Assembly: GCF_035084215.1 (NCBI RefSeq) | Contig: NC_090337.1 | Span: 50,468,001 to 50,532,000, forward strand | DNA: 64,000 bases | Source: Heptranchias perlo | Lineage: Eukaryota | Direction: 5' to 3' | The notes under the pieces: generated by a model | Database searches by the model: none | What the model saw: the letters and a program-made list of their open reading frames with translations, nothing else | Told to the model about the DNA's origin: nothing | Shown: in pieces, positions 14,940 to 60,035 of the stretch | How the letters are laid out: each line of letters starts with the position of its first letter | How positions within the stretch are numbered: the first letter of the stretch is position 1 | Program-made: the position numbers and the translations under genes

Positions 14940-15110
14940 AAAACCAATCGAATGAAAGGGCTCCCCACGGGCCAATCGCATCAAACCAATGGAAGGTGGG
15001 TGGGTGTTTGCTTCGTGGGGCGTGGCTATGTTAAAATCTCGTAAAGTTTCATTTTCCTTTTCTTCTGAGCACAATATGATTCCCGGAACGGTTGGCTGTA
15101 CCGGGAAATC
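14940..15110 (-). promoter_or_regulatory. RBR gene promoter: ISRE, GAS, CCAAT boxes, GC box
   Basis: AGTTTCATTTTC (GAAAATGAAACT on -) at 15045-15056; perfect GAS TTCCCGGAA at 15080-15088; near-GAS TACCGGGAA at about 15099-15107; three CCAAT at about 14943-14990; GGGGCGTGGC at about 15017-15026; 100-260 nt upstream of the ATG at 14846. Confidence 0.75.
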
Positions 15111-15218
15111 TTTCATCCTCTATTCGTGTTTCTAATGAAGTCGCGAATGTGTTATTTATAATCATTTTTATTATTGTTACAAATATCCAACGGAGGAAAT
15201 CTTTTGCCAGTGAAGGTA

Positions 15219-15470
15219 ATGTGGCTTTCCAACTCTGTGCCCATTCTTTCCAGTGGCTTCCCAACTCTGCCCCCATCCCTCCCAGTGGCTTCCCAACTCT
15301 GCACCCATCCCTCCCAGTGGCTTCCCAACTCTGCGCCCATCCCTCCCAGTGGCTTCCCAACTTTGCGCCCATCCCTCCCAGTGGCTTCCCAACTCTGCAC
15401 CCATCCCTCCCAGTGGCTTCCCAACTCTGCGCCCATCCCTCCCAGTGGCTTCCCAACTCTATGCCCACCT
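15219..15470. repeat. 32-bp minisatellite (about 7.8 copies), unit CAGTGGCTTCCCAACTCTGCGCCCATCCCTCC
   Basis: Units start at 15251, 15283, 15315, 15347, 15379, 15411 and 15443 (partial), plus a degenerate copy at about 15219; no spacers. Confidence 0.95.
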
Positions 15471-15489
15471 CTACCAAAATTCCCAGAGT

Positions 15490-16887
15490 GATCGGTTAGC
15501 CTATCATCAGTAGTAGAGAAAATGCTAGATTCTATTATAAAGGATGTGATATCAGGACACTTAGAAAATATCAATGGGGTTAGACAAAGCCAATATGGAT
15601 TTATGAAAGGGAAATCATGTTTGACAAACTTACTGGAGTTTTTTGAGGATGTAACTGGTAGAATAGATAAGGGAGAACCAGTGGATGTGGTTTATTTGGA
15701 TTTTCAGAAGGCCTTTGATAAAGTCCCACATAAGAAGTTAGTGTGCAAAATTAAAGCACAAGGGATTGGGGGTAATATACTGGCATGGATTGAAAATTAG
15801 TTAACAGATAGGAAACAGAGGGTAGGAATAAATGGGTCTTTTTCGGAGTGGCAAGCAGTGACTAGTGGGGTACCGCAGGGATCAGCGCTTGGGCCCCAGC
15901 TATTCACAATATATATCAATGATTTGGATGAGGGAACCAAATGTAATATTTCCAAGTTTGCTGATGACACAAATCTAGGTGGGATTGGGAGTTGTGAGGA
16001 GGATGCAAAGAGACTTCAAGGAGATTTAGACAAGTTGAGTGAGTGGGCAAATACATGGCAGATGCAGTATAACATGGATAAATGTGAAGTTGTCCACTTT
16101 GGAAGGAAAAACAGAAAGGCAGAGTATTATTTAAATGGTGATAGATTGGGAAATGTTGATGTACAAAGGGACCTGGGTGTCCTTGAACACCAGTCACTGA
16201 AAGCAAACATGCAGGTGCAGCAAGCAGTTAGGAAGACAAATGGTATGTTGGCCTTCATTGCAAGAGGATTTGAGTACAGGAGCAACGATGTCTTACTGCA
16301 GTTACACAGAGCCTTGATGATACCACACCTGGAGTATTGTGTACAGTTTTGGTCGCCTTGCCTAAAAAAGGATGTACTTGGCATAGAGGGAGTGCAGCAA
16401 AGGTTCACCAGATTGATTCCTGGGATGGCAGGACTGTTGTATGAGGAGAGATTGGGTCGACTAGGCCTGCATTCACTTGAGTTTAGAAGAATGAGAGGGG
16501 ATCTCATTGAAACGTATAACATTCTGACAGGGCTAGACAGACTGAATGCAGGGAGGATGTTTCCCCTGGCTGGGGTGTCTGGAACGAGGGGTCACAGTCT
16601 CAGGTTACGGGGTAGGACATTTAGGACTGAGATGAGAAGAAATTTCTTCACTCAGACGGTGGTGAACCTGTGGAATTCTCTACCACAGAAGGCTGAGGAG
16701 GCCAAGTCACAGAATATATTTAAGAAGGAGCTAGATAGATTTCTAGACACAGAAGGCATCAAGGGGAATGGGGACAGAGCGGGAATTTGGTATTGAGATA
16801 GGGGATCAGCCATGATCATATTGAATGGCGGAGCAGGCTCGAAAGGCCGAATGGTCTACTCCTGCTCCTATTTTCTATGTTTCTATG
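15490..16887 (+). mobile_element. 5'-truncated CR1 LINE
   Basis: RT ORFs 15522-15800 and 15858-16796 (YLDFQKAFDKV, FADD) split by one stop; 3' ttctatgtttctatg. Confidence 0.92.
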
Positions 16888-20081: not shown

Positions 20082-20456
20082 AGAAAGACTTGCATTTATA
20101 TCGCACCTTTCACGACCTCAGGACGTCTCAAAGTGCTTTACAGACAATGAAGAACTTTTGAAGCGTAGTCACTGTTGTAATGTAGGAAACGTAGCTGCCA
20201 AATTGCTCACAGCAAGGTCCCACAAACAGCAATGTGATAATGACCAGGTAATCTGCATTTTAGAAATGTTGGTTGAGGGATGAATATTGGCCAAGGCACC
20301 GGGTAGAACTCCCCTGCTCTTCTTTGAAACAGTGCCATGGGAACTTTTACGACCATCTGAGAGGGCAGAAGGGGCCTCGGTTTAGCATCTCATCTGAAAG
20401 TCAGTACTTCCAACAGTGCAACACTCCCTCAGTGCTGCACTGGATTGTCAGCCTAG
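20082..20456 (-). mobile_element. Deu-type tRNA-derived SINE with L2-like tail (SacSINE1-like), inside Penelope-related inverted termini (about 20030-20085 and 20540-20595)
   Basis: aagacttgcatttata...cacaaacagcaatg core shared with 20690-21110, 34822-35270 and 61945-62405. Confidence 0.65.
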
Positions 20457-21110: not shown

Positions 21111-21529
21111 CTGTGGTAAGGAAAAAGTGAACAAACTACAGAATCAACAAGTGTTGAATGTGGAACCCCGCATTTTGCACTCAATGTGTACTGCCATCAG
21201 CAGAGTAATGGAGAGAATCAACTGTGGAGGGGGGAGGAAACAGATTTTAAGACGAAAGATACCCATCAGTTTGAAATGTATCCTCGAAAATCTATTCAAA
21301 AATATACACAAATTGCAAAAAGACGAGCACATCAACAACAGTGCCAGCTGAATGTTTTAATTTCTATTCACTGTAACACTTAGACAGATAGTACCAGAGC
21401 TTTCCAGACATCAATGCCAGTAATGTTTCGGAAACCGTTCGTTCTAAGAAAATAACAAAATAAACAGCGAACATTCATTCGCTCTGTAACTTGTATCTGA
21501 TCTGGAGCCGCCGCTATTTCCTCTGCCTG

Positions 21530-21883
21530 TCAGCTGCTCCCTCCTTGTAGCACGATCAGGATGGTCGATTTGTTTGTAATCCCGTTATCAAACAGTTTAT
21601 CCGTATCCCTCAGTTGCCGATTAGCAAACAGCGCTCGCATCTTTTCTTCTCTGGCTGTTGAAAGAGTTGTAACATCATTTAATAAACTGAATAAAAGTAT
21701 TGAAACAACTTGCTCCCGATCTGAATGCGCGGATACATTACCCGCGTTCGCTGGTAACTTGGCTATCAGTTTCCTCTTAATTTGTAGCGCAGTCGTTGCG
21801 TTAAACTCGTATTCCGAGTTGGCGACTTCGACCGGGATTGTTTTTCCTTCGATCCCACGTACGAACACTTGATACATCGTCAT
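21530..21883 (-). CDS. Single-domain ubiquitin-like protein (Ubl-A), 88 aa, C-terminus ...STILIVLQGGSS
   Basis: Exon 21883-21742, 87-nt phase-1 intron (gtaatg...caacag, 21741-21655), exon 21654-21530. Protein MTMYQVFVRGIEGKTIPVEVANSEYEFNATTALQIKRKLIAKLPANAAREEKMRALFANRQLRDTDKLFDNGITNKSTILIVLQGGSS aligns to ubiquitin motifs (QIFVKTLTGKTITLEV; RLIFAGKQLED; GIQKESTLHLVL). Confidence 0.85.
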   Translation of the reverse strand: MTMYQVFVRGIEGKTIPVEVANSEYEFNATTALQIKRKLIAKLPANAGNVSAHSDREQVVSILLFSLLNDVTTLSTAREEKMRALFANRQLRDTDKLFDNGITNKSTILIVLQGGSS

Positions 21884-21966
21884 CTTCACTACTCTGTCCT
21901 GGTCACTATTGTTGCTGTTGCTCAGCCCAGCTCCAAGTCTAGTGAATTTCTCTAGAGACAAGATTT

Positions 21967-22031
21967 AGTTTCACTTTGACTCCAGGTCAAAGGAAGGGAA
22001 ACAGTTTCACTCTGGATGGTATTTTTCACTT
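21967..22031 (-). promoter_or_regulatory. ISRE/IRF-E cluster upstream of Ubl-A
   Basis: AGTTTCACTTTG at 21967-21978, AGTTTCACTC at 22003-22012, TTTTTCACTTC at about 22022-22032; 85-150 nt upstream of the ATG. Confidence 0.7.
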
Positions 22032-22124
22032 CATGATAAAGAATAGTTTAAATTTCCTATAATCATTTTAGTTATTATTGCTATCATTGCACTAAAGTCA
22101 GTTGTGCTTTTGTAAGACTGGGTG

Positions 22125-22425
22125 TGAAGGGAGTCGAAAACAAGGAGGCATAACCTTAAAATGAGAGCTAGGCCATTCAGGGGTGATGTCAGGAAACACT
22201 TCCTCACACAAAGGGTAGTGGAAATCTGGAACTCTCTCCCCTGAAAAGCTGTTGAGACTAGGCCAATTGAAAATTTCAAATCTGAGATTGATAGATTTTT
22301 GTTAGACAAGTGTATTAAGGGATACGGAACCAAGACGGGTTGAGATACAGATCAGCCATGATCTAATTGAATGGTGCAAGAGGCTGGAGGGGCTGAATGG
22401 CCTACTCATCTTCCTATGTTTCTAG
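22125..22425 (+). mobile_element. CR1 LINE 3' fragment
   Basis: RKHFLTQRVVEIWNSLP-like motif and ttcctatgtt tail. Confidence 0.7.
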
Positions 22426-22489
22426 GTTATGGGATAAAAGAAGGCAACAAAACTTAAGGTCTACAAGGCAAAATTATAACATCCTCACT

Positions 22490-22550
22490 ATATGTGTGTG
22501 TGATAGCTGGACCACTTACAGTCGTCACATCAGAAAACTCATATCATTTT

Positions 22551-26923: not shown

Positions 26924-27159
26924 GTCACAAGTAAAGTGCCTTAAGTATCTCAATGAGGTACATTTGGTTCTTTAACTATCATCCCACCGACTTTCATTGC
27001 CGGCGGGACTTCCCGATTCAGGACGCCCGCGTGCACACAGCTGCGTCTGTGGGGAATTCAGAAGTCGGCGGGTTGGACCCAGCTTCTGAACTCGCTCTGC
27101 ATTTCTGCAATTTTCGTAGCCCCCCACCTGCCCACAATTTATGTTTAAAATCGAGTCCT
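26169..27159. mobile_element. Harbinger-type MITE carrying the right arm of the inverted repeat
   Basis: Termini gggttcaatttt ... aaaatcgagtcc. Confidence 0.6.
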
Positions 27160-27427
27160 TAGTGTCTGCTCCTGAAACACTTGGATGGTTCTCAAAATCA
27201 TTGCAACAATCTGTACCAGAGAGCACCTAAAGGGATAAAGGCAACAAAGAACATTCATAAGTGTTTCTTTCATTTAAGTTCAATTTACAGGTAAAACATT
27301 TCAATACCGACAAAGAATCAAGTGAGCTGGCTCACACTCTGTGGCATGCTCAGCTTCTGCTTCATAGCGAAACTGCAAACCAAAATCTAGAATTACTCTT
27401 GTTGATATTATAGAATGGGCAGTCATT

Positions 27428-28178
27428 GTGGGGTAATTTTCAGTTCCGGAGTGGGGGGTAAAATGGGCGGTAGTGGATCGGCCGGCTGTTATATGTTCTC
27501 CCAATTTTCCTTTCTATTGAAGTTAATGGAAAGCAAAATTGGACAGAGTGTGTAACGAGCGGCATATCCATTACCATCCATATTGTGCCCATGCTGAAAA
27601 CAAAAATTCTCCCCGTTGGGGTAGATTTAACTGTTGGGCATCTAACTGGCAGAGTGTACTGGCTGCCCAACACAAACGAGCGTCCTGAAGCAGCTCACAT
27701 CGGATTAAGGCGGCACAATTTCGGCTGTTCCAGAGGCCAACCAGCAAGGTAAATCCTGGGGTGGGGGTTGCGATCACAGAGAGCCCGGGGCAGCAGCAGC
27801 ACAGATTATTTTTGTGGGGTCTGGAGGAACACTCCGGCTACACCTGGCTCCACAGAAATAATTTTAAATGTACCTTTTTGGGGCCTCTTCAGACGTATCA
27901 CCAGCAAAACTGGTCGGAGAGAGCACGGTGCATGCTCCAACCGGTTCTGTCCTGAAATGGCAACTGGGGTCCTATGTACCTCACAGGACTCTGATTTGCA
28001 TATTAAAAGGGACCTAACTCCCTGAAACAGACGGTCACTTTGTCCGGCCAGTGGTAGCCCCTGTAAAAATGGTAGCAGCCAGAGTATTGGCGTTAATGGG
28101 GTGGTAAGTCTACATACCCCAGTTTGAGGCTATCACGACCCCATTAACGCCGATTTTGCTGAGTTAAAATTGACCCTA
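27428..28178. mobile_element. Two adjacent short MITE-like elements
   Basis: ggggtaatttt...aaaattctcccc (27428-27614) and ggggtagattt...aaaattgaccc (27618-28176). Confidence 0.45.
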
Positions 28179-29636
28179 CTGTGTTCTATCCTCTATTTTA
28201 ACACAGGGCTTAACACCTTCACTACAGAGGAACATCATACATGTATGTTAAGGTTTGTCCACTGATATCACCAATAGTAATTTATAGGTTTAAGAACCAA
28301 TTGGCATGGTTTAAAGCAATTGTTCTCCTAATAAGTAGGTACAGTAACATATAAGAGCTTATTAACTATAATGTAGAACTATTTTAAGTAGGGGACCCAG
28401 AGTTAAATCCCTGTCTTGAGTGTAATTCAAGTATATTTATCATTGGTTGTGGGGGGGAGGGGGGGGGGAATGTTGCTTGCTCTCAGCTAATTCATGTGAT
28501 GAAACATAACATGGCTGCAGGGTATTCTATTTCATGGTTGAGGTGATGAGAAAAGTGCCCTGCTCCTGCCTGGGCCTAGCACTGGTGGGCTCAGGCCTGC
28601 AGCTGTGTGTCTGGCTTCAGTGTTCAGCAGCCAGAAGGTCCTGATTCTATCTGACAATCCTGAGGGTAAGCTGCCAATCTGAAACATGGCCCTACCTGAA
28701 AGTCTTTGGCCTGTCTCAGGACCCGTGTGGAGCCTCTCTAGTCAGCAGGAGTCAGGGGCTCGCCGCAGCAATATGTTCTTTGGGTGCCACTACCCTGGGG
28801 CACCAAGCCTGTGCTTGGCGTTAAGTGAGGAATGGTCCCTGCACCTACTGCAGATGCAGGCCAAACTCCCTCACCAGGAAAACCCCAGGTCAATGTAAAA
28901 TGGGCAGAGACTCAGCAAACTGGATCTCTACACCTTTTTTCTGACCTTTGTGTCCTTCTATCTCTTCCTCTCAGCTTAATGTGCATTCTGAAGTTCATAG
29001 AACGTAAAACAATAGCTACAACAGGTGTTCCAGAGTGGGAAGCCTAGGCTTGGCCATCAATGGTGGGGCAAAGGGATGCATAAGAGGCCAGAATTAGGAG
29101 GAATGAAAAGTTCTGGGCAGGTTGTAGGGCTTAAGGAAGTTACAGAGATGGAGAGAATTCAGGGTCAGAAGCTCAGCTCAGGGTCAAATAGGACATCAAG
29201 GTTGGTAACAGTCTGGTTCAACCTGAGATTGTGGCCGGGAAGGGGAATGGAATCAATAGACAAGGTATGGAGTTTGTTGCAGGGGCCGAAGACAGTAATA
29301 TGATTAAATTTTTATCTATTTCATTTTCTTTTCTGTTTTTCGATGCCTTCATTTACATTTATGCTTAAATGCCTCAGCCTCTCTCAAAAGAATGGGCTTC
29401 AACTGGATATTTTTATTTCACAACAAATAAGGGAGAACTTTCAAACACACTTGTGCATTCTGAGCATTTGCAGGTTGCAGATGTTTACTGGATTGCAATC
29501 TGTGCATCAACAGGAGTTGGAAGGGTGTCCCTATCCTGTGAGAATTTGACAGTTCCTTTGTTTTTCTGCAGGGAATCTGAGACTGAATTCTCAAAGCTTT
29601 TATTTCAGGAAAGGAATGAATTTATATAAACATATT

Positions 29637-30426
29637 GGCCCAGATTTTGTTATCAAAATAACAGTGAGGGTAATGACGTTCGCCAATATTTATGCGCAAA
29701 TGGTACAGCGACTTCAGGCAGGGACAGATGCGTGGTTATACTCAAATATCCAAAAATTGCTGTCCAAGTTGCGCCAATCCGCTGTTAGCTTTGCGAAAAC
29801 GGCATCTCGCTGTCTGCCTCACCATTGAAATGCATTGAATGGCGTGACGTTACCGTATTTGTGCAGTAGATTCGAACCAAACTCACCACAGAAAGTTAAG
29901 TCAGATCATTTCAAGTCTAAGTACCCTTTTAATGACATGATAAGTGTTAATTACTGCCAATCAAGCTCTCTGGCATTGAAAATTAACTGTTACAAGTGTG
30001 GGGTCTCAGTCCTTCAGATTTTATTTGTTGGAGATTTAAAAAATGTAAAATTTTAAATTTAAATTTTTTTTTACTTTTCCTTTCTGTCTCTTTTCTTTCC
30101 CTCTCTCTCTTAATCCAATCTTTCTTTCCCTCTCTTTATTTCTCTTTCTGTACCTGATTTGACATTGAATTCACCCACTCTAATTTACACTTCCTTCTCA
30201 GTCCTTGTGCTGTTAATTTCACAATTCTTCGATCTGATTAAGGAGATACACAGTTGCTTGCCCTGTTCACTCAGGTCCCAGATGACCCGTTTCCCTCGCT
30301 GTGAAGTTATCAGTTTGCACTGTTAGCAATATACCACGCAAAAAAATTGAAAAACCTAAATGTGCAAGGGCAAGTCTAACTAACAGCAGAAGCCATTAGA
30401 TGCCCTGCTACAGCAAATTATGGCCC
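29637..30426. mobile_element. MITE, same family as 24006-24716
   Basis: ggcccagatttt ... aaattatggccc termini; colinear internal homology. Confidence 0.8.
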
Positions 30427-30716
30427 AATGATTTCCTGTTATGAACTCCCACCAGGAAAACCATGATAGCACTTGGCAACACTGTGATCATTTGAGAAGC
30501 AGCAGTGGAAACAGTAACAGCTGTTACTGTAGCTTCTTTTTGCTGGTTCGAGAAGAAAATAGATAGTTTACAGAGAATGGATTCTTTGTTAGTCAATTAT
30601 CAATTTTTTAATTGTTATATATTTAATTTAAAAAATCTTGAACAATTTTTGTGTCTTAAAGATTTTTTTATCTATGAAAAACTTGAAAACTGCATAAGCA
30701 ATTAACTTTGAGCATT

Positions 30717-45700: not shown

Positions 45701-48700
45701 AAACAGGAAAAGTGAAACAGAATCTTATTAGATTGCCTGAGGAAAAGAAAAAAGCAGGCCAACACCAAGAGTGCAGATGGCCCGAACCTCTTAAACAAAT
45801 GAGGAAAATCTGCCAAGAGAAGTAGAAAATAAAAACACTTTTATTATGTGATTAACTGCAAATGGGAGGTTTTGGAAAGGGAAGAATATGTTGATGGGGT
45901 TAGATGAAGAAGGGAGGGAGGAGGCTCGTGTGGAGCATAAACACCGGCATGGACCTGTTGGGCCGAATGGCCAGTTTCTGTGCTGTACATTCTATGTAAT
46001 TCTATCAACCCTCTTAAAAAGAGATTTTAGGTATCATCCAAGATGTGCCTGCCAGTCCCATGTTAATGAGATACCTTCCCAATGACCCACAAACTCTAGT
46101 AAGGTCAAGCGTTTGAGGGAAAACCAAAGTAACTGACAGGAATGCAGCCCAAGGATTTTTGGGCCCATATCATCAATGTGATTGCAGTTCTGATAAAGTT
46201 TCATCGACCTGAAACATTAACGCTGTTTCTTTCTCCACAGATGCTGCCTGACTTGCTGAATATTTCCAGCATTTTCTGTTTTTATTTCATCAATGTGATG
46301 ATTAATTACCATTATATTCACCACATAATTAACATCAGCAGTGAAAGCAAATGTGTGCAAGAAAAATATAATTTCATCAACCACGTTTTTGATATTAATT
46401 TACTAAAAACAAGGAAAGTCCAGCATGGAACGGTCAATATGTTCTGTAAAAGTTAACAGTACAGCATTGAAATCAGAGTAAATTAATTATTCAACACCAG
46501 ACACTCCACTAAATCTCTTAACTTTTGGTGCTATTGTAAAATGGGCAATTATCAGAGTGGATCGGCCGCATATTATACACCTCGCCTGATTTTCCTTTTC
46601 ATTGACTTCTTACCTTGTCCATTGTGGGTTTTAGACACCATTCATTGCAGTTGTCCTGTACAAAAATTAAATTAAAAATTGCAATGAAGTATAAAATTTG
46701 TGAGATCAGATGTATGGTATGTAATTTTGAATAAATACATTTCTGTGCATTTCGGAATAAGAAATAATCATGACGTAACAATACATTGCAGATTTAGTAG
46801 GAGATGCCGTCACCATGCTCAATGTACTAGAGCATGAACTCGGACGCACTTCACAATCAAGCTGCCAAATGCTAAGAAATACATGCAGTTATTCAAATTA
46901 CTTAGTGTGGTAGTCTCATATACTTGCTAGCACCATAGACCACAAGCGCAGAACAAAACATGCAACAGGGCACAAAACCTGACTTCTGGAAGCTACATAA
47001 ACCATTGCTGACATAGGTCTGCTCACAAGGGCCATATATACCACTGTCATGGTCCAGTCATGGTGAAGGTACCATGTACCAACAAGTAAGCTAAATAGCC
47101 AGTGAAAACTAATTAGCCTGTAAGTTTTATCTTCTTGAGGTGATACTGAATCTTGTGTGTGGGTAATATATTTCATCCAAGAATAAGCTAAAATCCCAAA
47201 TGTTGCATAAAGTAGCAAGATAGGATAAGAGCTGCAACTGGATAAGAGCTAATGGTTTAAGTGAAGACATGTGGAAAAATTAAAAGAATGCATTGAAAAT
47301 TTACTATAAGGCAGCCATTGTTAGGAGCCATTACATGCTTTCAAGTTCCATCTGCTCCTGACTTAATCACAAGTGTACATAATGACAATGACAATTTTCT
47401 GGAACACACAGCGAATTCATCTCCAGCAAAATGAATACTCTACACTATTCTCCATTAAAATATTAGCATTAATAATAATGGCAAGTATCTTACCTGGGAT
47501 TTGTGAAACTCCAACGCAAGTGGAATAGTAATGCACTCATTAAATTTCTGATAATACATCCAGAAGTCAACAGCTTCAAATCGTTTTAGTTGGAATGTGA
47601 GAATTTGAGGCAACTGTTTAAAATAGTATCTCTGCAAAATGTAAGGTCAAGTTAGTGCAACAAATCTTAAAAGGAATCTTGTTAATGAAAGATAGAGATA
47701 AATGTTATGTTTGTATTTCATTCATAATTAGGATGAAGATATGCAGAAATAAATATCTATAATACATTTAAAATATTACAACTACATGCACCTCCTGTTA
47801 AATTTTTACATTATAAATTCCTATGTCCACATTTATAATGAAAACTGCCCATGTAAACTTGTCACGCTGTAATTACAGCCTTTCACCAGTGAAGGTGCTG
47901 ACATCCAGTATTTCTAAGGGCCTCAAGGAGGTGATTTCACCTTGAAAAAATCAGACTTTGCATCCATTCAGCTGCCTCTGCTGCTTCTCCCCTTCCTTTA
48001 ACAGCCAACGACTTATGGAATTATATAAACTATCTTGGTGACAGAGTGGCAAACTTACTGTTTCTGTTTTAGTCTTTGTGCTACAATGGTCACAATAAGG
48101 CTCGTTGTCGCCTTCCATAGTATCCTCCTTCAAGAACTCTTGAAGAGCTGTTTCCTTTAAAAAGAAAGTAACAGGTTAAAATCAGAATATTGCAGCACGT
48201 CGAAGGCCTTGCACTAGTAGATAGTTATTTACAATGAGTTCAATACATGTCATACAGTTATTAAATCACACAGCGACTCCGATTTAGCCACATGCACTAA
48301 TTTTAGTAGAAAACACCTTATACACAATACAGGTAAATGTACTTCACATGGGTGTATTTACTTAACAAACATCTACCACCATTCAGTGACCAAGGAAGTA
48401 AACCAACCACAATGATCAAAAAAACACTCACACACTCTGCTTTTGATTTTACCAACAAATGCACAAAAAGGTTAAAGTTCACATACATACGTGAATGAGT
48501 ATTGAAATCACATGACCAACAATTGTGTCTGTTATTCATTGTTTATTTACTAATCAGGCATGCAATTAGCCACATCTGGATTGCCAACATCTCACACAGT
48601 TGTTAAATCACGGCACACAATGCATTATGGGACGTTGTGCTAGTTCCTCGTGTTCCATTGTCAAATCACCATGATGTAAATCTTAGAGGAGTTATGTAGT

Positions 48701-51700
48701 CAGAGCTGCTTAAGATTTGCTGGCTCTACACTGAAGGTTGGTGATGCATTTATGCCACTGTGAGCAGTACAGCAGTGTGAAAATCCTGGTCTGACAAGGA
48801 TAAGTGGAAATTCTATCTGGCTCTATTTCATTTGCTTTATCAAAGACATCACGCTGTTTAGTTAGGAAGAAACTAAATGGCAGATTCAAACCAGTTAGAT
48901 ACATTTTTCCTAAGTACTATTAAACACCTTTCTATAGATATCTGATTGCATACAAGTGAGGAAGATTAGAATTTAGACAAAAGAATATATACTCTGATTA
49001 ATTTTCAGGTTAAAGTCATCTAGGGCAGAATGCAAAAATATCAAAGGGTAAAAATAGCAGCTTACAGACAGAAGCAGTAACTTTGGACCAGAATTGAAAG
49101 TGAGTGGTGCATCAAAGGTCCAGGGGTTAAAAATATATGCGGGTATAAGCAAGAAGAGCACGTAAGATGGCATATTTGGAACTTAAAAAGAACAAGAAAG
49201 TTCAGAGCAGCACTGACCATAGTAGTATCGATAAAATTCAGAGAGACAAGAAAGGTTGTGACTGAGAAAAAGAGGTTAGTGCTTAGGAGACAGAGATGGA
49301 TCACCTATCAAACAACAAACTTTTTCTTCTTTACTGTCTAGAGCGGCAAGGGATGCGTTAGAAGAGCTTTCCATATATGGAAGCAGTATTCAAGAAGTCA
49401 AGAGTGGAAAAGTGTTTGGAACAAGAGCAAACTGAGCTTCTTGGAGACAACTTTAGCAATGGAGATGTGTATGTTCCATTTGAGATCAGAAGAAATGAGG
49501 AAGCCAGGAATATCAATAGAATGAAGGGCTAACTGCATTCAATTTAGTTTAAACATTTTGCTCTCCAAGTTAGCAAAAATGCAGTTGCTCAGTTCTCAAT
49601 TAAAACATAATGTAAGTGCCTGCAAGTCTTGGATAATAAAAGATAAATATTGCAATGTCCGAGACTGTTTCAAATGTGAATTACTTTGGATTAATTTTGT
49701 GATGTAGTGGATATCTAAAGTGTCACTGGTACTGGACTCCACAAACAGAATCAATGTAAAAAAGGGATGTTTGCCACATTGCTGTAAAGTAATTTAATAA
49801 TCTGAATACAAAATATGGGTTTAACTCGTTTGCTTTATAATGTTTTAATCTTACCAGATGTCTAATCTTTGCTGAAGAGTAAGCTAAACGAATGGGTAGA
49901 GGTACATCCAGAAAGAAACAGTCATCCTCAAAAAGATTTGCGCACACTGAGCACTTCATGGATAGAACCATTATGATCTGATAAAACTAAAAGACATAGC
50001 ACAATGAGCACTGAGCCCATGATCTGTCATTCAGAATTTAACAGAATACTGAAAAAAAAAACTGATATTTTGAATCCCATCTCAAAAAATACTGATGCTT
50101 CATTGTTGCCATTGACAAATCTTCAAGCCTTTTTTTTAGGTGTACAATATACTTTGGAGGGTGGGTGGGGGGGGAAGAGGATAAATACCGTGGGGGAAAA
50201 AATCCTCGACCATTCCAGTTCACTCTCTCCCGTAACTTTGGAAGGAGTGCGACAGAAGGGCTGGAAATCCCCAGCCATTGCTGGCACTTCTTGCACACCC
50301 TTGCAAGGCCAGTGACGTGAAGGGGCAGGGACAGGAGCACTGACTCCCTATGTCGAGAAGCCCTGTGACATCAGCATCGCAGAAGGTCAGTACATCTTGG
50401 GAAGCTGGTACGTCCAGTGAGAAGAGGCATACCAGTCTCTTCCCTGGTGGAAGTGTGGCCTACCTGGATTTCCAGGCCTAGATCATTGCCTGGTCCCATG
50501 AAGGGGTCAGAAATGCTATAAGATTCTTCTGGCGTCCTTATAAAAGGAGCTGATGGGATAAATGCGTGTATCTTTCAAGGGGCAGTGGGGGGAGTCCCTT
50601 CACCCCCGCCGGGCCTGGAACTGGCATATTCCACTGACTTTTCAGCCTATTGGGGCAGGCAGGTGCCCAAGATCTGCCCCTAGAGGCGTGGGTATTTGTC
50701 ATGGCCATTCAAGTCAGGAGCCCTCCCTTTGATCCACATACTCTGTTAGGGCCAGAGGTCACTAGCAGGCACACTACTGGCATAACAGCTGGGATTGTAC
50801 CCTGCGGATTTTAAGGGTGCTGGATTTTTTTTTTAATTTTAAGATTGACAGTTTTGACAATTCACAGAACGTGACACAGCTTCCTGTTTGTAAGCTACAA
50901 CTTCCTGTTTGTAAACCACAACCCTGTCTACTGATGGAAAAAGTCTGAGAGCACTGTAGACAGTGTTTAGAATCCAGGGAAACATCTATTAGAACAGCTC
51001 AATATTTTAAAAATAGCTATAAAAATGTTTATAGAAAAACAGCAACAAAGTAAAGCACCACTATCTGAGGTCATTTTGATAGCAAAATCAATGTAACTTA
51101 ATATAAGGGTCTGTGAACTTCAATTGAAAATAATTTGACAGATCTCAGTTAATGTGTCATTAACTGCTGCATTTGTATTTCAATTTATTATGCAAGAGAA
51201 AAGGAGTGCTAATCACAGTGCTGGGAAATGAACTAATGCCTTAAGGAAGGGGCTTACCTTTCATCAGGCACACAATAAAAATGATCACGGCTGTAGTGAC
51301 GACACAATATCACTGAAATTCTTAAAGATAAGTTGTCAGTGTTTGCTTTACCCTCCCAATCCCCCACGGACTGTGTCTCAGTGCCAGGATACTCAGTGGT
51401 GTATGGGTGGAGGGTGCATCCTGAGGAAGATAGAAGCCCTAGGCCCGTGGTGTGACCATGACTTTTAGAATCGAGTTGATTCAAGGAGAGGAGAGAAGCC
51501 ACTCCCTGGAAACACAATGCGTGAAGAGTTCCGGTCAATGAAAGCCAAGTTGGCTGCAGAGGCAGTGACACCGTACGGTCAAACTAATACGTGAACTGTG
51601 ACACTGTACAACAGGTAAAAAGTCAATCAAATATCACTGTGTATAATATGAACACAGTACAATAAATTATAATACAAATATAGCACATTAAATAACTATT

Positions 51701-54700
51701 CAAAGTAAATGATGCTAACTATATATAATTTATTATTTCATCTATATGCCCCCATTCCTTCTGAATCCCTTTCCCTTCCATTACCAGATTTGGCTCCTGC
51801 TCCATCTCAATCTCAGCCCCTTGCTCCCTCCCAATCTCCAGTTTCTTTCACTCATATATGTTACAACATGTCCTGGGTGGTTTCTCTAAATCTGGCCCAG
51901 TACCCACTTTTGATCCAATGCACACTGGTTGTCATCTTGCCCTGGGCTTTTAAAAAGATATAAAATGATAATTGAATAAAGCAGTAATGAGGTACGTGTT
52001 AGAGATATAAAGAGAGAGAGAGTGGGTGATATACTGAACAAAGCAAACAGATGAAAGGACTTACAGAATGAGGGAGAGAGAAAGGATGTGGAAAAGGAGT
52101 TGGAGACACATGGGAAGGTGTAGAAAAAAGGGGAAAAAGGAAAACAGAAAAACTAAGAGTCAGACAAGCAGAGATCCAGTTACAAGAAGAGAGATGCAAT
52201 TTTTAAAAAATTGTCGGTGGGCACTACCTCAGATTAACCTTACCTCGACAATGTTATGCTCCTGATCCACTTCAGTCTTCAGTTTGCTTATCAGATTGCG
52301 GAAACATTCTTCTATATCACACTGTTTTGAAACTTGAAAAGAAAAATTGTAAAAAATAATGTTTAAATGAACATATACCTCTATACAGTACATTAAAAAC
52401 CTTAGCCTGGATTTCCCGATACGTGCTGGCATCAGTGGAAGGGCAGCAGACATGCACTTCTGCCCGACCGTTAACTCTGCTGTTAATCCTGGCAGGCTTC
52501 CTAGGGTACTGCACAGTTAAGCTAGTTTATGTACTCGTCCTTGAATGGGCTGGAACCAACAAACTTTGATCCAGAGGTGATTGCACTAGCACTGAACTAA
52601 GCCGATTGCTTATTCATCTACTATGTGAAGACTAAGGCTTGTGTCATATCCAGTAAGCTAAATACAAAACAAAGGTTTCTGTTCAGCCCCAAGACAATGC
52701 TACAATACCAAATATTGTGTGTTTGAGGTGTGTACTTTTGTTCATAGAGGGAGAGCATGATAGAAATATCTGATGAAAGCCAAAAAGGTATTGCCATCAT
52801 CACCATGGCACACAAGCTCAACCATACAGCTCTCTCCATACAGCAGCTCCCTCTCTTTTCATCTGTTTCAATTGCACTCAATATATTCTATTTTCCGCTT
52901 TCCTTTTTTCAGAGAGAGAGAGAGATTCAAAAGCCTATGAACAGATTCTCTGGCATTCCCTCACATTTGCTTGCCTTTTTGTTCCTCTGTGTCCTTATAA
53001 GGACGATGTACTGGAAGCTGTTGCAAAACCATTACTTTTCCTTGTGCTGGTGTGCACCAGGATTTTAGGAAATGGTAGCAATCCAGGTCTTCCCTCTTGA
53101 AAATTAAAAGAAAAAAAGGATTCCAAAACCTCGAAACGTTGCGATAACATCAGGGATGCAGCCACGACACACCGAGATAAAATATTATTGGACTAAATGC
53201 CCTTAGCGCTGCAGAAATAAAGTAGGACTTTGCCACTCTCTCCCTTCTGGCATACACCATGGATTCACAGCTTGGTCATTGCAATTTTTTGAATACATTC
53301 TCAGGCTTTCACTACAAGAAATGTCTTAGGAAACTTAGTGTTGGCTTCCCCTACCGAGTCTTCAATGTTGGCTTCACTTAATGGACCAACTTAATCGCAG
53401 AAAAGTGACAAATGGACCAGGCAGCAGAATACTAAGAATTGGAGAAACATTTTTTTTGATCAATGGTTAGGTAGATAGATACATAGACACTAAATGGATA
53501 GATTTGTCCAATGCTTACCATTCAGTCCCAAGCTTGTGGTCAACTCATTTGTCTCCAAAGATTTTACCTCTCTGCTTTCTAATTTGTTGAACAGACTTTT
53601 CAATTTGTGTATAAAATCCACATCTGTTTCTAAGCTAGAAAAAATATGGAATTTTAACATTTAAGAAAACCAATTCTGTTTGCAATTTAGGAACAGAATA
53701 ATCTTGAAATTTCCAATGGAGTAATCCTAAATCCTTTAGGGTCTCTGAATGGTTGACAAATATCTTTTAAATGCAAATAAGCATTTGGGCACATACACAA
53801 AGGGGGTGAAATTCCTTCTGTCGATAATTTCAGCGAAAAAGTCATGAGAGTAGAAAATGGGAAATCCTACTTTGTATTCAAACTGACTTTTTTTTGGAGG
53901 AATTTCACCTCCAAACATGCTTGTTCAAAAAAATCACACTAACACTCTATGCCATGGGACGGTAACATACAAAGGTTCCGTCCATGCAACTTACAATACA
54001 GTGAGCTTCCAGTCCTAGCTAACTGGGGATAACTCATATGCTGTTATATAAGCAGGAACTTCACATTTTTTAGCAGAACAAATACACTGGCTAATGCTTT
54101 GGCTGGTATTCCACTTTACATAATGGATTATTTCTGCATTTTATGGATATTTCTATCTCTTTGCTGAAGTTTGAAAATTTCATTCCATTTTCCAGCCCCT
54201 TGCATCCATAATACGAAAAACAGAATTTGTTTTGGATATTATTTGCACTTTTCAAAGTGAACAATGTAATTGCTGGAGAACACTAATTTTGCCTGCCCCA
54301 ATATTACTGCTCATTAACTGCAACTAATTAGATGCACAGTATAGTTTCTAGACCCAACCCAATAATGTACTTTAATTTCAGAAACACCCATCCAACATTT
54401 TTATTTTCCTTATTTCCTACATCAGCCATTCTGAGTTTGATTAGCCAACCAGTACTGAATTACAGACTGTTCTGTGTTTTAGACTTGTCGCCCTCCCCAC
54501 ATTGACTGAGCACTGGATGGGTGCAGTGTGCCCAAAATGCACTACATCTCTCCAATCTTCAGTTACCCTTGAATCATCACAAGTAGTAGTTTCTAGCCTC
54601 TTGTGTTCTGACTGCATTATACACTTTGTTCTCAATTTCCAAGCAATAGTTCACCAAACTTTCCAGTTCAAGATTTTTCTAAATCTGGATCTTTACATTT

Positions 54701-56174
54701 ACAGAACCCATAAACGGTCTTACCAATGACCAATAGTGCTCTTTTAGCAGTCCGAAGTAATTCTAATGCCTACCTGGCAATGTAATGTTTAACTTCTGGG
54801 GTCATGAACCATGTTTGAAGCAACGTGTTCAGATAACAAGTGGCTCCTTGATTGATCAATCCAACAAAAGCTATGCATATAATAAAAAATGGACATTAAA
54901 GGAAAAGTTGATTAGAATCAAAACAGTAGCTGTTCTGCTGAGAGTCTTTCTTTACAACAACCTACATTTATATAATGCTCCTCACATGTAGGGAGGCATA
55001 TCAGAGTGCTTCACAATAAGGAGGAAAAAGATACAGTAGACAAGAGAGAGAGGGAACTGTGCAGAGCGTAGTGGCTGAATGAATGCTTAGCTGAATGAAT
55101 GAATGAATGAATGCCGGTCGCTTGTCGTTTTAATTCCCCCTCCCACTCCTACTCTGACCTCTCTGTCCTCGGCCTCTTACACTGTTCCAATGAAGCTCAA
55201 CGTAAGCTCGAGGAACAGCACCTCATCTTTCGCTTAGGTACTTTACAACCTTCCGGACTCAACATTGATTTCAATAACTTCAGATCATAACCACTCTTTT
55301 GTTTCTTAACCTGTCCCATTACCAGCCTCTTTGCCTTGCACCATCATCCCTTTTGTCATTTAATCACTTGTGACCTCTACCCTATCCCATTTTGTTCTTT
55401 CCTTCCCTCCCCTCCCTCCCCCCTTTCCCTGGCTCTGTACTTGTTTAAAAACTGTTAACTCTTTAACATCTTCCAGTTCTGATGAAAGGTCATCGACCTG
55501 AAACATCAACTCTGTTTCTTTCTCCACAGATGCCGCCTGACTTGCTGAGCTTCTCCAGCACTTTTTGTTTTTGTTTCAGATTTCCAGCATCGGCAGTATT
55601 TTGCTTTTGAGGTTACATAGCCCCTTGGCTGAAAAGCCTGGGGAATCTAGATGCATGTGGAGTATCCAGATTTAGTGCGGACATTGTGGACGGTGCCAGT
55701 TAGTATGCTGAAGATGTCAACTTGGGTGGAGGTCCACTTTCTGCCTGCATAGTACGCTGGAGGATGAATTTACAATTCTACAGTTCCACTGTTTCCCTTT
55801 TGGTGTGAAAGATCATCGATCTGAAATGGATAACTGTTTCTCTCTCTCTCCACAGATGCTGCCTGACCTGCTGAGTGTTTCCAACATTTTCTGTTTTTAT
55901 TTCAGCATTTGAACCTACTGCTTTTGTTGCCTTACCTGGTCTTTTTGAAATGAATCCACCAAACCCACTGAAAATGCTTTTCGTTGTACCTGTAAAAAAT
56001 CACCGAAAGAGTTGTAATAGCGGGGGCAGACTCTCGTACTGTTGTTTACAAAGCGATCATCAATCCCTGAATCGGCAGCTCAGTATTAAAGTATTGTCTT
56101 CATATTAATACACCTATGATTAAGTGAGAGTCGGGCTGCTTACCTGTACTTCTCCTGTTGATATGTGGCCACAT
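30717..56174 (-). CDS. Ubiquitin/Ubl-specific peptidase (peptidase C19), USP18-like catalytic-domain-only protein; about 368 aa core, about 434 aa with optional micro-exons
   Basis: Phase-consistent GT-AG exons: 56174-56144, 55989-55936, 54870-54774 (Cys box [23 protein letters not shown]), 53634-53519, 52332-52244 (QCDIEECF), 49986-49855 ([12 protein letters not shown]), 48154-48059 (YCDHC), 47631-47494 ([12 protein letters not shown]), 46655-46614, 34255-34130 (His box [20 protein letters not shown]...WYYFND), 32267-32245, 31886-31831 (TAYLIMYRR), 30823-30717 (stop; less certain). Lower-confidence in-frame exons: 44865-44835, 41798-41772 or 40417-40391, 40951-40920 or 39567-39536, 36635-36528. 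Confidence 0.85.
30919..31232 (+). mobile_element. LINE (CR1/L2-group) 3' end with A-rich tail
   Basis: [25 protein letters not shown]-type ORF end; tail shared with 1155-1290 and 59135-59335. Confidence 0.7.
34130..34255 (-). CDS. USP exon with the catalytic His and Asn/Asp boxes
   Basis: 126-nt exon reading [42 protein letters not shown], flanked by tttag| and |gtaact. Confidence 0.9.
34822..35270 (-). mobile_element. Deu-type tRNA SINE (near full-length)
   Basis: (gaaa)n tail, shared core, tRNA-like head gggacttgaa..actcagagg..tgctac. Confidence 0.7.
37500..39036 (+). mobile_element. 5'-truncated CR1 LINE with uninterrupted RT ORF (young copy)
   Basis: ORF 37438-38958 is open through all RT motifs ([18 protein letters not shown]) to the natural stop; 3' cttctatgattctat. 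Confidence 0.95.
39474..42234. repeat. Tandem duplication of about 1.38 kb (39474-40854 and 40858-42234)
   Basis: Both copies begin gaggtactt..gcagagatgg and end gggtagatgttga; nearly identical, as the paired ORFs 39656/41040 and 39978/41362 also show. Confidence 0.95.
42280..43745 (-). mobile_element. Degenerate Harbinger remnant nested in a CR1 3' fragment (42085-42279 and 43747-44040)
   Basis: Starts GGGCTAGAAATT; Myb/SANT remnant [16 protein letters not shown]; homologous to 6490-6700 and 9530-10020; CR1 text resumes after it. Confidence 0.65.
44530..44825 (+). mobile_element. CR1 LINE 3' end
   Basis: [17 protein letters not shown] motif; actatgatactat tail. Confidence 0.75.
45420..45670 (-). 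mobile_element. CR1 RT fragment
   Basis: WIRNWL...QGS...ADDTKL remnants. Confidence 0.55.
54774..54870 (-). CDS. USP exon with the catalytic Cys box
   Basis: 97-nt exon reading [31 protein letters not shown], flanked by tag| and |gtagg. Confidence 0.9.
55115..55610 (+). mobile_element. Penelope-like element 3' fragment
   Basis: [23 protein letters not shown] (GIY-YIG C-terminus) followed by the ctgatgaaagg...gatgc.gcctga tail. Confidence 0.7.
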
Positions 56175-56430
56175 CTTGTGGAACACGCGGAACAGGGAAG
56201 ACAAACTGCACCTGCAAGTACAGAAAATAATGACCAGGAGTTTCGCGGCTCGTTTAACTCCAGTCACCGACCACATCGCCCAAGTACAGTCTAGTCCCAA
56301 AACGTGTGGATTGCTCGCCGTCTTGCACCATAGAAACTGCGATTATTATTTTTTTCTCTCTACTAAGGACGATCCCCTTTATTATTTGCAAGGATCGGTA
56401 TTTCTCAGTTACAGTAAAACAAAACCTTCA

Positions 56431-56516
56431 ACTTTCCGTTTCAATTTCCCTATTTGCATTGTGACTTTGTTTGCAACGGTGCAGACGAGAAATAAGGGAG
56501 TTTAGTTTCAGTTTAC
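56431..56516 (-). promoter_or_regulatory. ISRE/IRF elements upstream of the USP gene
   Basis: ACTTTCCGTTTCAATTTCCC at 56431-56450 (GGGAAATTGAAACGGAAAGT on -, three GAAA units at 6-bp spacing) and AGTTTCAGTTTAC at 56504-56516; locally CpG-richer DNA 250-340 nt upstream of the ATG. Confidence 0.75.
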
Positions 56517-56888
56517 TGTAACGTGTCGTCCGTGAGGCCCACGTGTGCCAGGGTTATAAACCACGTGAATGAGCAGAAACTGTCTTGACGGGAAAATGAC
56601 AATATACCTTTTGGGCAGATTTTAATGTCCCTTTTATTTCTTTTAGTGCAGACTCCAGGAGATTGGCATCCAGGAATTAGGACGCAGGAGTCAGCTGTCA
56701 ACATTTCTGCCGATCCCGTGGCAGACTTTGGCAACTCAATACTGTTGTGTGGGGCGGGATTTTAACCTAACCCGCCTGTCGTTAAACTGACGAGATTGGG
56801 CACAATGCTGGTTTTACACACTGCCCGATTTAACTCTCCACTGTAGTCATTGGACGGGCTGTAAAACCGACATTCCACCCGATCCCAT

Positions 56889-58946
56889 GGGCTCGATTTT
56901 AGCGTCGGGTTTCCTGCGGGTTTCCAGCGGGGGGGGGACCCCGAAAATCCCAATATCCAATCACGTGACCGGATCGCGCCGAGATCCCGGCCACTTCCGA
57001 GTGCCGCGCTGACGTGCGGGGCTGCGTGCGCAGGCCCCGCTGGTGGGAATCCCGCAGGCAATTAAAGCCAGCGGGGTTCCACTTGAGTGTACTTACCTTG
57101 CTTGTTGAGGTCATTAAATGAGCTGAAGCAGCTGTCAAAACAGGAAGTGTGGGATTTTAGGTTCAAGGCAGTGTGTTTCACAATCTGGGGGAAACAGTCT
57201 CCCTTCAACCGGTCGTGTTCCAGCCAGCAGCCTGTGGCAGCTGCCAAGGTGCACTCCACAGCGGGTGGGAGAGCCCTCACCCACGCAGGAGGCCACCGCG
57301 TCACGTAGGGCAACCCCTGCCCTCCACCACCCCCCGCCAAGCCAGAGGACAGACCGACGTGAAACCGCAGCCCCAGTGCGAGGAACCACCTACCTACCCT
57401 GCACAACCCCTCAGACCAACACCTGCCAGATGGGTGGTGCGTTGACATCCTCGGAGGACAAACAGCATGACCAGCCCCAGCAGCCTCGCAGTCCACGCCG
57501 TCCACCTCTGACACGTGGAGCTCCACAACAGAGTGCTGTGACGCATCCACCTGTACAGCAGGAGGGAGGGCTACCGCAGAGAGAGACGCGTCGCAGAGGG
57601 CACTACCCTCCGCACAGGGTCCACAGACCGAGGCGCAGCTCCCCGGACCTCTCTGAGCAGCAGTGCACACGGAGGCGCAGATTCACTCGACATGTAGTCG
57701 TGGAGATCTGCAGGATCTTTCATGCCGAGCTGCTCCTGGCTGGCCCCAGCACCATCTGCTTACCTGTCGCTGCCAAAGTCACCACTGCCCTCCACAACCT
57801 CTCCTCCGCATCCTTCCAGGGTGCAGCCGGGTACACCGCCGATGTCTCTCAGTCGTCTGCGCGGAAGAGCCCTGCAAATACACCTGCACCTATTCTGCAG
57901 TAACACAATGGGTGGCATCAGTGGTGGGTCCTCATAGTGATACCCAGGAGCGGGCATTATTGGACACAACAGACAGGATTCGCGGAGACATGGCAGTGGT
58001 GGTGCCAATATAATGTGTGAAGTTTGTTGCTCTGAAATTCAATATAGGTAACACCCATGGCAAACCCTCAGACACCCTTGTGCATCCCCTTCATGCTCAC
58101 GACACGTTTGCCGTACGCTGCCTACTGCACATATGCGATGCATGCCCTGTGGCTGCAGCACAGGTGGTGGCAGGTTGAGTGAGGCTGGCCGTGAGAGAGA
58201 TGCACGAGAGGGTGAGTATGGGATAGAGCCATGAGATTGTATGAGGATTGGGTTGCGTGTTAGTGGCGGGTGAGTACTGGTGAGGTGAGTAGGTGCAGGT
58301 AAGATGAGGATGGGGTTTGAGTGGGTATGAGGGGTGATGTGACAGAGTAGTGTTGGCGCTGCCGAAGGAGATGTGGGGTGGGGGCAGTGTTGTGGCAGAC
58401 GGAGTGTAGGGGAAAGACTACGTGTTCTCATTGTGGCTGACCTACTGAGGTCATTGGAGCGCCTCCTGCACTGTATGCAGGTGGGCGATATGTTGGTGGT
58501 GCAGGTGACCCCCTCTGCCACCTCGAGCCAGGCCTTCTTGGTGGCAGAGGCAGGCCGCTTCCTCCCGCCCGCCGGGTGGAAGATCTCTGTCCTCCCCCGC
58601 CTCCTCACCCCATCTGATGATACCTGGGGTGAGGCATCATTAAACTGGGAGCAGCCTTTCCCCTGGGCTGCTCCATGCTGTAATTTGTTCTATTGGTTGC
58701 AGCATCTGTCAGTGGAGGACTGCCCCTTTAAGTAGAGAGCCTCCAGCTGACAGATCGTACTGCGCATGCGCAGCCCGCCCGATGCGCAGACCAGCAGCGC
58801 GGACCCCGGAGGAGCAGGTAAGTGATTCCAATTAGTGCATTGCCTGCTATGATCGTGCGGGCAACCCACTAATTTCACCGGGCGCGGAGGCCACGCACCC
58901 GAAACCCAACCCGCCGGAAACCCGCAGGCCTGCTAAAATCAGGCCC
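56889..58946 (+). mobile_element. Internally deleted Harbinger transposon with TIRs and CAT target-site duplication
   Basis: TIR GGGCTCGATTTTAGC / GCTAAAATCAGGCCC; CAT at 56886-56888 and 58947-58949; N-terminal transposase remnant (+, about 57430-57900, LPVAAKVTTAL) and Myb/SANT remnant (-, about 58410-58677, CIQCRRRSNDL). Confidence 0.88.
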
Positions 58947-59134
58947 CATGAGTTTCCTGCCCAACGAATTTGGTTCAAATTACTCTCCATCTACGATTTT
59001 GCCACCAGACTACGGGAAACGGATTTAGCAGCGAAAAGCAAAATACTGCAGATGCCGGAAATCTGAAACAAAAACAAAAAAACGCTGGAAACACTCAGCA
59101 GGTTCGGCAGCACCTGTGAAAGGAACAAAGCTCT

Positions 59135-59335
59135 TTTTTTTCTTTATTCGTTCACGGGATGTGGGCGTCGCTGGCAAGGCCAGCATTTATTGCCCATCCC
59201 TAATTGCCCTTGAGAAGTTGGTGGTGAGCCGCCTTCTTGAGCCGCTGCAGTCCGTGTGCTGAAGGTTCTCCCACAGTGCTGTTAGGAAGGGAGTTCCACG
59301 ATTTTGACCCAGCGATGATGAAGGAACGGCTCCCA
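59135..59335 (-). mobile_element. LINE 3' tail fragment
   Basis: Same family as 1155-1290. Confidence 0.7.
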
Positions 59336-60011
59336 GTGGAATCTCCACCAGTAAGATAAACTCACAGCTGCAAGGGTGGAAAACCTGGCAGTGATACATT
59401 GAGACCTGAGGGGAATTAAAAGGGGTGGAAAAGAGGTCAAGAGGAATACTTTTCTCAAGCCATGATTAGTTAGTAGCTGGGGCCTATATGAAGGCAGAAG
59501 AGCCCAATATTCGGCCTTCTCCCTCCATCCAGTGACTTAGGGGGCTTACTGCCAGTACCGCAGGGACCATCACCACCATTCTCCAGGCTGTCTTCGGGGT
59601 GGTAGTCAGTAAGCAGGGAAATATGATGGTTTGGCGACCCTCACCTCTCCAAGAGATGAGCAGGGAAGGAGGAGGAGGAAAATTGAAATTGGCAAGGAAT
59701 GCAACAGTAGGCTTCCTAACTGATTTTCCCACTTTTTCCACCACTACCCCACCTGACCTTGGGTGAGATAATGGTTGAAAATCCAACCTGATATCTCTGA
59801 ACTCTGGAGATTAAAGATTTCTTTTTTAAAGTAAGGAGTATATGAATCTACTGCTTGAAATTATAATCTCATAATTTATGAGAGAATTGCTCGTGCTCTG
59901 TGATCTATCATTTTGATGAGCATAAAAACACTGAAATATGGCAGTAGAAGGAATGAAAGAGCAGCCTTTGATTTTAAGGTTTGGCTGTAAACAAGAAAAG
60001 TGAGTAAAAAT

Positions 60012-60035
60012 GAAACTGAAAGTCTTATATAAATA
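60012..60035 (+). promoter_or_regulatory. ISRE plus TATA box of Ubl-B
   Basis: GAAACTGAAAGT at 60012-60023 followed closely by TATATAAA at 60026-60033, about 85 nt upstream of the ATG at 60116. Confidence 0.8.

Follow-up and report, generated by a model that had tools for sequence, protein, structure and literature searches.

Interferon-response-type promoter elements shared by ligase, protease and ubiquitin-like genes in a shark gene cluster

Do the GAAA-rich elements ahead of four neighbouring genes in the shark Heptranchias perlo place these genes under common interferon control, or are they chance matches in A-rich DNA? The genes encode an RBR (RING-between-RING) E3 ligase, a ubiquitin-specific protease (USP) and two single-domain ubiquitin-like proteins (Ubl-A and Ubl-B), and they lie in a stretch of 64,000 nucleotides (G000:C13:50468001-50532000 of a 3.25-Gb genome, hereafter the window), whose proteins match RefSeq records. 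An initial annotation of this DNA had proposed that every one of them carries its own interferon-stimulated response element (ISRE) or binding site for interferon regulatory factors (IRFs), and the motif strings it had quoted (15045-15056, 21967-22031, 56431-56516 and 60012-60033) are all present. Our analysis indicates that the four elements are very probably functional interferon-response promoters, which would switch on the ligase, the protease and both Ubls together in an antiviral response. The genes and their elements are:

4903..14921, minus strand: RBR E3 ligase gene, ARIT clade (si:ch211-212k18.15 in zebrafish), 289 aa (splice joins in 4/4 runs, RBR fold)
15045..15062, minus strand: tandem ISRE/IRF element of the RBR gene, 199 nt 5' of the ATG (the quoted 15045-15056 extends to 15062)
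21382..21952, minus strand: Ubl-A gene, single ubiquitin-like domain, 88 aa (coding 21742-21883, 21530-21654)
21967..21978, minus strand: IRF-element (IRF-E)/ISRE-like site of Ubl-A, 84 nt 5' of the ATG
26975..56545, minus strand: USP47-like / USP18-like protease gene (RefSeq ATG 56276; Cys-box exon 54776-54871, His-box exon 34130-34255)
56431..56448, minus strand: triple-GAAA ISRE of the USP gene, 155 nt 5' of the ATG
56504..56516, plus strand: second IRF-E/ISRE-like site of the USP gene, 228 nt 5' of the ATG
60006-60023 and 60026-60033, plus strand: tandem ISRE and TATA box (TATATAAA) of Ubl-B, the TATA box 2 nt after 60012-60023
60068..61712, plus strand: Ubl-B gene, single ubiquitin-like domain, 95 aa (coding 60116-60260, 60927-61069; splice join in 4/4 runs)

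What distinguishes these elements is clearly their position, the total number of matches being only mildly raised. The annotation's own check, a matrix scan of the whole window, is passed: with a hand-set weight matrix, seven of the nine best ISRE-like sites lie 84-228 nt 5' of the four start codons, and the remaining two belong to a single intron/exon unit that is duplicated in the USP gene. The pattern AAANNGAAASY, which all four genes match, occurs 10 times in the window (4.6-6.0 expected), 6/10 times at the four starts; its background per 350 bp amounts to 0.022 in the 404 kb around the cluster to which the window belongs (11 promoters masked) and to 0.026 in 270 kb elsewhere. Because matrix and pattern were chosen post hoc, a published fish consensus (PMC3688568) was also run. 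With 6 matches in the window (3.9 +/- 1.9 expected), it recognizes the RBR, USP and Ubl-B elements but not that of Ubl-A, so the claim of an own element at every gene stands for the former pattern and not for the latter. A count of the bare core GAAANNGAAA does not discriminate promoters and was dropped as a criterion, with 13 matches in the window (4.6-6.9 expected), only five of them at the starts and none at Ubl-A. Scattered sites of equal strength had been named as evidence against the annotation. Promoter positions are enriched, but bare cores are scattered and two strong matches lie inside the USP gene, both found by matrix scan and pattern search:

39509-39520, minus strand: strong ISRE-like match in the duplicated unit of the USP gene
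40893-40904, minus strand: strong ISRE-like match in the same duplicated unit

These two were ruled out as promoter elements, since they represent one duplicated purine-rich unit just beyond a splice donor; the purine-rich stretch at 39509-40904 is read as coding in sawshark gene models. A repeat origin of the four promoter elements was also ruled out, because all of them lie in sequence that is unique within the 464 kb compared.

The four genes and their 5' regions are real, as spliced contigs show them. Splice joins of the RBR, Ubl-A and Ubl-B genes were found in the assembled contigs of 4/4 runs (X1-X4) and spliced USP contigs in 3/4, and we regard these contigs as spliced RNA because the joins have GT-AG ends, although no run is recorded as RNA. 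For the RBR gene, coding exons at 14765-14846, 14119-14216, 13837-13998 and 5853-6380, again with GT-AG ends, reproduce the RefSeq protein (P0001). Contig ends do not fix transcription start sites, and their position relative to the elements differs between the genes. The RBR contigs, which extend to 14870 (listed) or about 14921 (computed from contig size), end before the RBR element; those of Ubl-A stop at 21948-21952 in 3/4 runs, which leaves the site at 21967-21978 15 nt past the end of 3/4 contigs, and at 22148 in one run, whose contig spans the Ubl-A elements. The Ubl-B contigs begin at 60068, 60069, 60078 and 60137, which fits the TATA box at 60026 and places the element beyond the contig ends. 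Contig depth is low in X4 and higher in X1-X3 for all four genes, but was not used as evidence, because it is a poor measure of expression and there was no housekeeping control.

The same arrangement recurs outside the window, which is the middle of a cluster of about 280 kb, reaching from about -135 kb to +147 kb (tblastn in 464 kb) and comprising 5 USP genes (one a partial duplicate), 4 RBR genes (in the case of RBR1, just the last exon was detected) and 4 Ubl genes with a single domain. An element is present at 9/11 placeable cluster starts (empirical p <= 0.02), and seven of the top eight site clusters in the 464 kb fall within 450 bp 5' of a cluster gene start. Among the outside starts fixed by homology alone (n=4), both Ubl genes have the element and RBR2 and RBR4 lack it. 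Paralogous promoters align almost solely at the element, the best pair being Ubl1/Ubl-B, which align across ISRE and TATA box (z 6.7). The element has therefore been inherited and retained rather than independently gained; since the two Ubl promoters descend in part from ancestors that were duplicated, the four elements did not arise four times independently. Positional enrichment together with recurrence at paralogous starts supports the annotation's central statement, i.e. coordinated regulation rather than chance.

How might such control operate? Type I interferon signalling (via ISGF3) as well as virus- or interferon-activated IRFs would bind the GAAA repeats, and STAT1 dimers could add an interferon-gamma input at a gamma-activated site (GAS) in the RBR promoter. 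IRF and type I interferon genes are present in the genome (16 exon-level matches each). That each gene has its own element can be related to the promoters being small unique islands hemmed in by repeats, e.g. by the repeat block that separates the divergent USP and Ubl-B promoters. Further features of these promoter regions are:

14944..15022, no strand assigned: three CCAAT boxes and a GC box in the RBR promoter
15080..15088, plus strand: perfect GAS-type palindrome TTCCCGGAA; no other TTCCNGGAA occurs in the window, and 464 kb contain 9
22003-22014 and 22020-22033, minus strand: two weaker IRF-like sites of Ubl-A (matrix scan)
56759..59330, no strand assigned: repeat block between the USP and Ubl-B promoters, multi-copy in self-BLAST

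The GAS-type site, which fits the GAS consensus and is absent from the initial annotation, lies 18 nt from the RBR ISRE, itself the sole strict GAAANNGAAACT of the window. The RBR promoter is CpG-rich (CpG observed/expected 1.07 versus 0.38 for the window) and is bounded by a 32-bp minisatellite at 15221-15467. At Ubl-B, the ISRE at 60012-60023 is preceded by an overlapping site from 60006. The two additional IRF-like sites claimed for Ubl-A are present, but do not rise above background: one reaches a score of 10.7, and the other does not rank among the top 22. Overall, these promoters are built as is usual for interferon-stimulated genes. As in vertebrate promoters of this type, such as those of zebrafish IFIT genes, in which ISRE presence predicted reporter response (PMC3688568), GAAA repeats occur within a few hundred bases of the start, often in tandem and in one case beside a TATA box; unlike there, the best Ubl-A site has a degenerate first half, and in some contigs the transcribed 5' end runs over the USP sites. 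The shark genome offers its own parallel, since an OAS-family gene on another contig (C28) has an equally strong tandem element, with a score of 16.5, about 190 nt 5' of its ATG, which recurs in four copies.

Induction of the ligase and protease clades is itself carried over, by analogy, from salmon and trout. The ARIT clade was named by Grimholt et al. 2025 (PMC12234341), who report that salmon treated with interferon-gamma show a log2 rise of 13.5 for ARIT.1, 11.6 for ARIT.2 and 4.9 for a USP18-like gene, that all three increase with infectious salmon anaemia virus (ISAV), and that ARIT reads rise from 0 to hundreds or thousands upon stimulation. A trout gene with the same name and from the same cluster is induced by infectious pancreatic necrosis virus (IPNV; PMC11258392). 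The window RBR is a member of the ARIT clade, as judged by similarity rather than an outgroup tree: it is 58% identical over 264 aa (E 1e-107) to P0327, which we equate with salmon ARIT.1 via an offset between transcript and protein accessions (ARIT.2 is in the cluster of P0327), and like ARIT it has IBR domain matches only and no transmembrane tail. The USP likely belongs to the USP18-like clade defined, with the annotation USP47-like, in the same paper (PMC12234341), although this placement, too, is made by similarity and not by a tree. It shares with that clade and USP18 a short sequence near USP47/USP18, the USP47-like annotation and a location beside ARIT, as on salmon chromosome 7, where ARIT.1, ARIT.2 and USP18-like lie within about 250 kb (PMC12234341 supplement); it differs by its five copies in the shark cluster and a duplicated-exon insertion inside the catalytic domain. 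Candidates for a true USP18 in this genome are the last USP of the cluster and a locus on C21. We found no remark on the chromosome 7 proximity in the accessible text of the ARIT paper, which there does not mention shark, promoter, ISRE or a Ubl partner. As a separate observation, the GAS-type site fits the very strong interferon-gamma response of salmon ARIT. Motifs, their positions, gene structures and family membership are shown here; that the elements are bound and confer induction in this shark, and that the Ubl genes are induced at all, is inferred.

In part, all this is ordinary: ISREs at immune genes are known, and induction of the ligase and protease clades has been published for salmon. 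What the elements add is a first hint that the unnamed Ubl genes share interferon control; with it, a set of neighbouring genes becomes a candidate pathway whose parts can be named. In addition, the promoters are ready reporters for the question of whether ISGF3/IRF and GAS logic already exists in cartilaginous fish.

Several observations weigh against interferon control of the four genes as a set. Weight matrix and first pattern were set by hand from a general consensus when the finding was already known, and the independent fish consensus matches just 3/4 starts in the window and 6/11 in the cluster. As many as 8/13 bare-core matches lie away from the starts. The Ubl-A site has CAAA as its first half, so that it is of the IRF-E type only and does not contain a full GAAA-N(1-2)-GAAA. 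The elements had been described as lying just upstream of the starts, which holds for the four start codons, but those of the USP gene are inside some transcripts: its contigs reach 56477 (X3), 56522 (X1) and 56545 (a piece from X2), such that X3 spans one element and the other two span both. All RNA evidence consists of assembled contigs of four runs from one sample of one study. Outside the window, RBR2 and RBR4 have no strong element (p 0.29 and 0.27), and the starts of three USP genes were placed by an ATG and splice donor beside the element, which is circular. Finally, no element scoring at least 13.5 was found between or near five minus-strand ISG15-like gene copies on C28, whose first exons are unplaced. 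Side by side with these points, RBR2 and RBR4 are the copies nearer to teleost ARIT by their Rcat motif, and the RBR4 promoter (G000:C13, window +100381) has no ISRE and a kB-type site 56 nt 5' of the start.

If the four genes are indeed co-induced, do their products also work together? One candidate answer, to which we give somewhat less than an even chance, extends interferon control of the genes to a dedicated tagging kit. The USP would trim the extension of the Ubl, thereby exposing its diglycine, and later remove the tag; a shared E1/E2 would charge the Ubl, and the catalytic cysteine of ARIT would accept it and pass it on to targets, possibly at membranes via a CaaX tail. On the side of the modifier, all four copies of the Ubl family found in the genome sit in this cluster. 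Its members are about 38% identical to ubiquitin repeats and 40-48% among themselves, have the beta-grasp fold, and retain a diglycine plus extension in 8/8 aligned homologues, with the diglycine in ubiquitin register for Ubl-B (which has a Pfam ubiquitin match and an extension of 8 residues) and two outside paralogues. Linkage points in the same direction: in three skates, Ubl and RBR accession numbers are 2-3 apart on one chromosome, in elephant shark both are on a shared scaffold, a dugong gene model fuses ARIT with a Ubl of this family (most likely adjacent genes merged by annotation), and the salmon ARIT and USP18-like genes are neighbours as described above. In a search of 50%-representative proteins, 6 of the 150 listed matches belong to the Ubl family and polyubiquitins dominate.

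On the side of the ligase, 387 relatives were found at E <= 0.001, and the following family figures refer to the best 120 of these, which come from sharks, teleosts, coelacanth, lungfish, axolotl, turtle, alligator, platypus, xenarthrans and manatee; the turtle, alligator and echidna members of the ARIT paper are RBR matches here or members of their clusters. The Rcat cysteine C213, which aligns with the RING2 cysteine region of ARIH1, is invariant in 60/60 aligned sequences (the query and 59 of the 119 others listed), and is followed by K instead of the usual histidine motif in 119/120. The first cysteine pair of RING1 is missing in 108/110, with a CxxC before the first CxH in 2/110, hinting at altered E2 use. 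A structure model (pLDDT 84.5) matches ARIH1, ARIH2 and Parkin, and the nearest solved RBR structure by sequence is ARIH1, at just E 0.007. In the ARIT paper, where RNF144 has the N-terminal RING1 CxxC in the alignment, the ARIT structure is called typical, whereas we see a RING1 minus one cysteine pair and an Rcat CK[N/Y] without histidine. The window copy also differs from ARIT in ending with a CaaX-like motif (5853-5867), which is found in 10/120 listed relatives including itself (sharks, lungfish, axolotl, manatee, armadillo) and which points to prenylation in one branch of ARIT; monkey sequences in the ARIT alignment have such a C-terminus as well. The protease has intact catalytic Cys, His and Asp motifs (Pfam UCH 1-254/254, E 3e-42).

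Thus, the cluster might represent a second interferon-induced tagging system of jawed vertebrates, made of single-domain Ubl, ARIT (with reduced RING1 and perhaps membrane-anchored in one branch) and USP18-like proteases, which would run parallel to ISG15 and would have been kept from sharks to afrotherians, with the ligase lost towards apes and humans; this idea seems slightly more apt to fail than to hold. ARIT is reported in monkeys, and not in apes or humans, in PMC12234341. If conjugation is true, vertebrates hold an overlooked antiviral modifier system, which humans apparently lack. Our literature searches, in which most subscription journals were outside coverage, found no paper that deals with the Ubl family, with these promoters or with a cluster of the three gene types. 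As in the ISG15 system (ISG15, UBA7, UBE2L6, HERC5/6 or ARIH1, USP18), modifier, ligase and protease are apparently interferon-controlled and the precursor has an extension after the diglycine. In contrast to ISG15, which is a di-Ubl ending in LRLRGG, the Ubls have a single domain and mostly an LPGG-type tail, and their genes are clustered, with the ISG15-like di-Ubl genes of the shark on another contig (C28). Against the tagging kit, the cluster showed neither an E1 nor an E2 gene, though no search was aimed at them, and linkage of tandem immune genes is no proof of common chemistry. Moreover, the Ubl-A tail is two residues short, equally so in its sawshark orthologue, and may not be activatable; Ubl-A may be a conjugation-incompetent or decoy member. 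The Ubl-A diglycine (21530-21550) is, by itself, two residues early compared with ubiquitin and the rest of the Ubl family.

Alternatively, and in our estimate with a likelihood equal to that of the tagging kit, the genes are interferon-induced but serve ubiquitin or ISG15 chemistry, with ARIT acting as an ordinary ligase for one of these two. The USP would then remove conjugates or restrain interferon signalling in the manner of USP18, and the Ubls would act in free form as binding partners, allosteric activators or decoys. Allosteric activation of RBR ligases by ubiquitin-like proteins is established, and is a role that free Ubls could play here. The genome has a separate ISG15-like array, the short tail of Ubl-A fits a non-conjugated protein, and the USP is nearly equidistant from USP47 and USP18, with USP47 as best PDB match before USP34/USP9X/USP18 and a His-box exon scoring equally for USP47 and USP18. 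In addition, ligation of ISG15 was raised as an open possibility by the authors who named ARIT (PMC12234341). What this alternative does not account for on its own is the persistence of the diglycine-extension tail, and of the linkage to ARIT, from sharks to a placental mammal.

Both possibilities presuppose acute induction, i.e. interferon control of the four genes. It seems unlikely that the elements instead chiefly drive basal expression in immune tissues via IRF1, IRF2 or IRF8, although all four genes could be assembled from runs not recorded as stimulated, the Ubl-A site and the second site of the USP gene are closer to IRF-E than to a full ISRE, and salmon ARIT.1 has a low basal expression in immune tissues (PMC12234341). 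The rise of salmon ARIT reads from zero upon stimulation speaks against it. So do the tandem GAAA arrays and the GAS site, which are typical of inducible promoters. That the matches are due to chance in A-rich DNA and were selected post hoc is very improbable, since, even with totals just about 1.5-2 times expected, bare cores elsewhere and two equally strong sites inside the USP gene, 4/4 starts at a background of about 0.025 per 350 bp, a pattern repeated at outside paralogues and an element conserved in otherwise diverged promoters largely refute it by position.

Some further observations concern other loci and the architecture of the genes. At C28:33.93-34.05 Mb, five ISG15-like di-Ubl copies face four OAS-family genes, which have C-terminal di-Ubl exons (OASL-like) and a tandem ISRE each. 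Four distant RBR-like loci (on C38 and C18) have no Ubl or USP match within 50 kb each, and some have ISRE-like sites near the first matched exon. Seven 10-kb stretches at other ubiquitin-family matches contain two sites scoring at least 12.5, both near one polyubiquitin gene (starts unmapped). Within the USP catalytic domain, a 1.4-kb unit with two coding exons (39460-41390) is duplicated, the copies being used variably among RefSeq isoforms, and sawshark models have extra copies. In the RefSeq model of the USP, the final coding exon (26975-27226) matches a very common repeat (15,499 candidate matches), such that the C-terminus may be repeat-derived or mis-modelled. Repeats at 6800-10400, 42000-43500 and 56900-58900 and at 11900-13400, 15500-16800 and 37400-39000 are, respectively, Harbinger-like elements and CR1-like reverse-transcriptase fragments, as we presume from their open reading frames. 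A segmental duplication with an offset of about 48 kb (window -125000 to -60000) copies part of USP1. In the fifth USP gene of the cluster (G000:C13:50580974-50581076, i.e. window +112974 to +113076), a strong ISRE is followed by a TATA-like box and then by an ATG, as in a textbook promoter, and the His-box exon of this gene has its best score to USP18.

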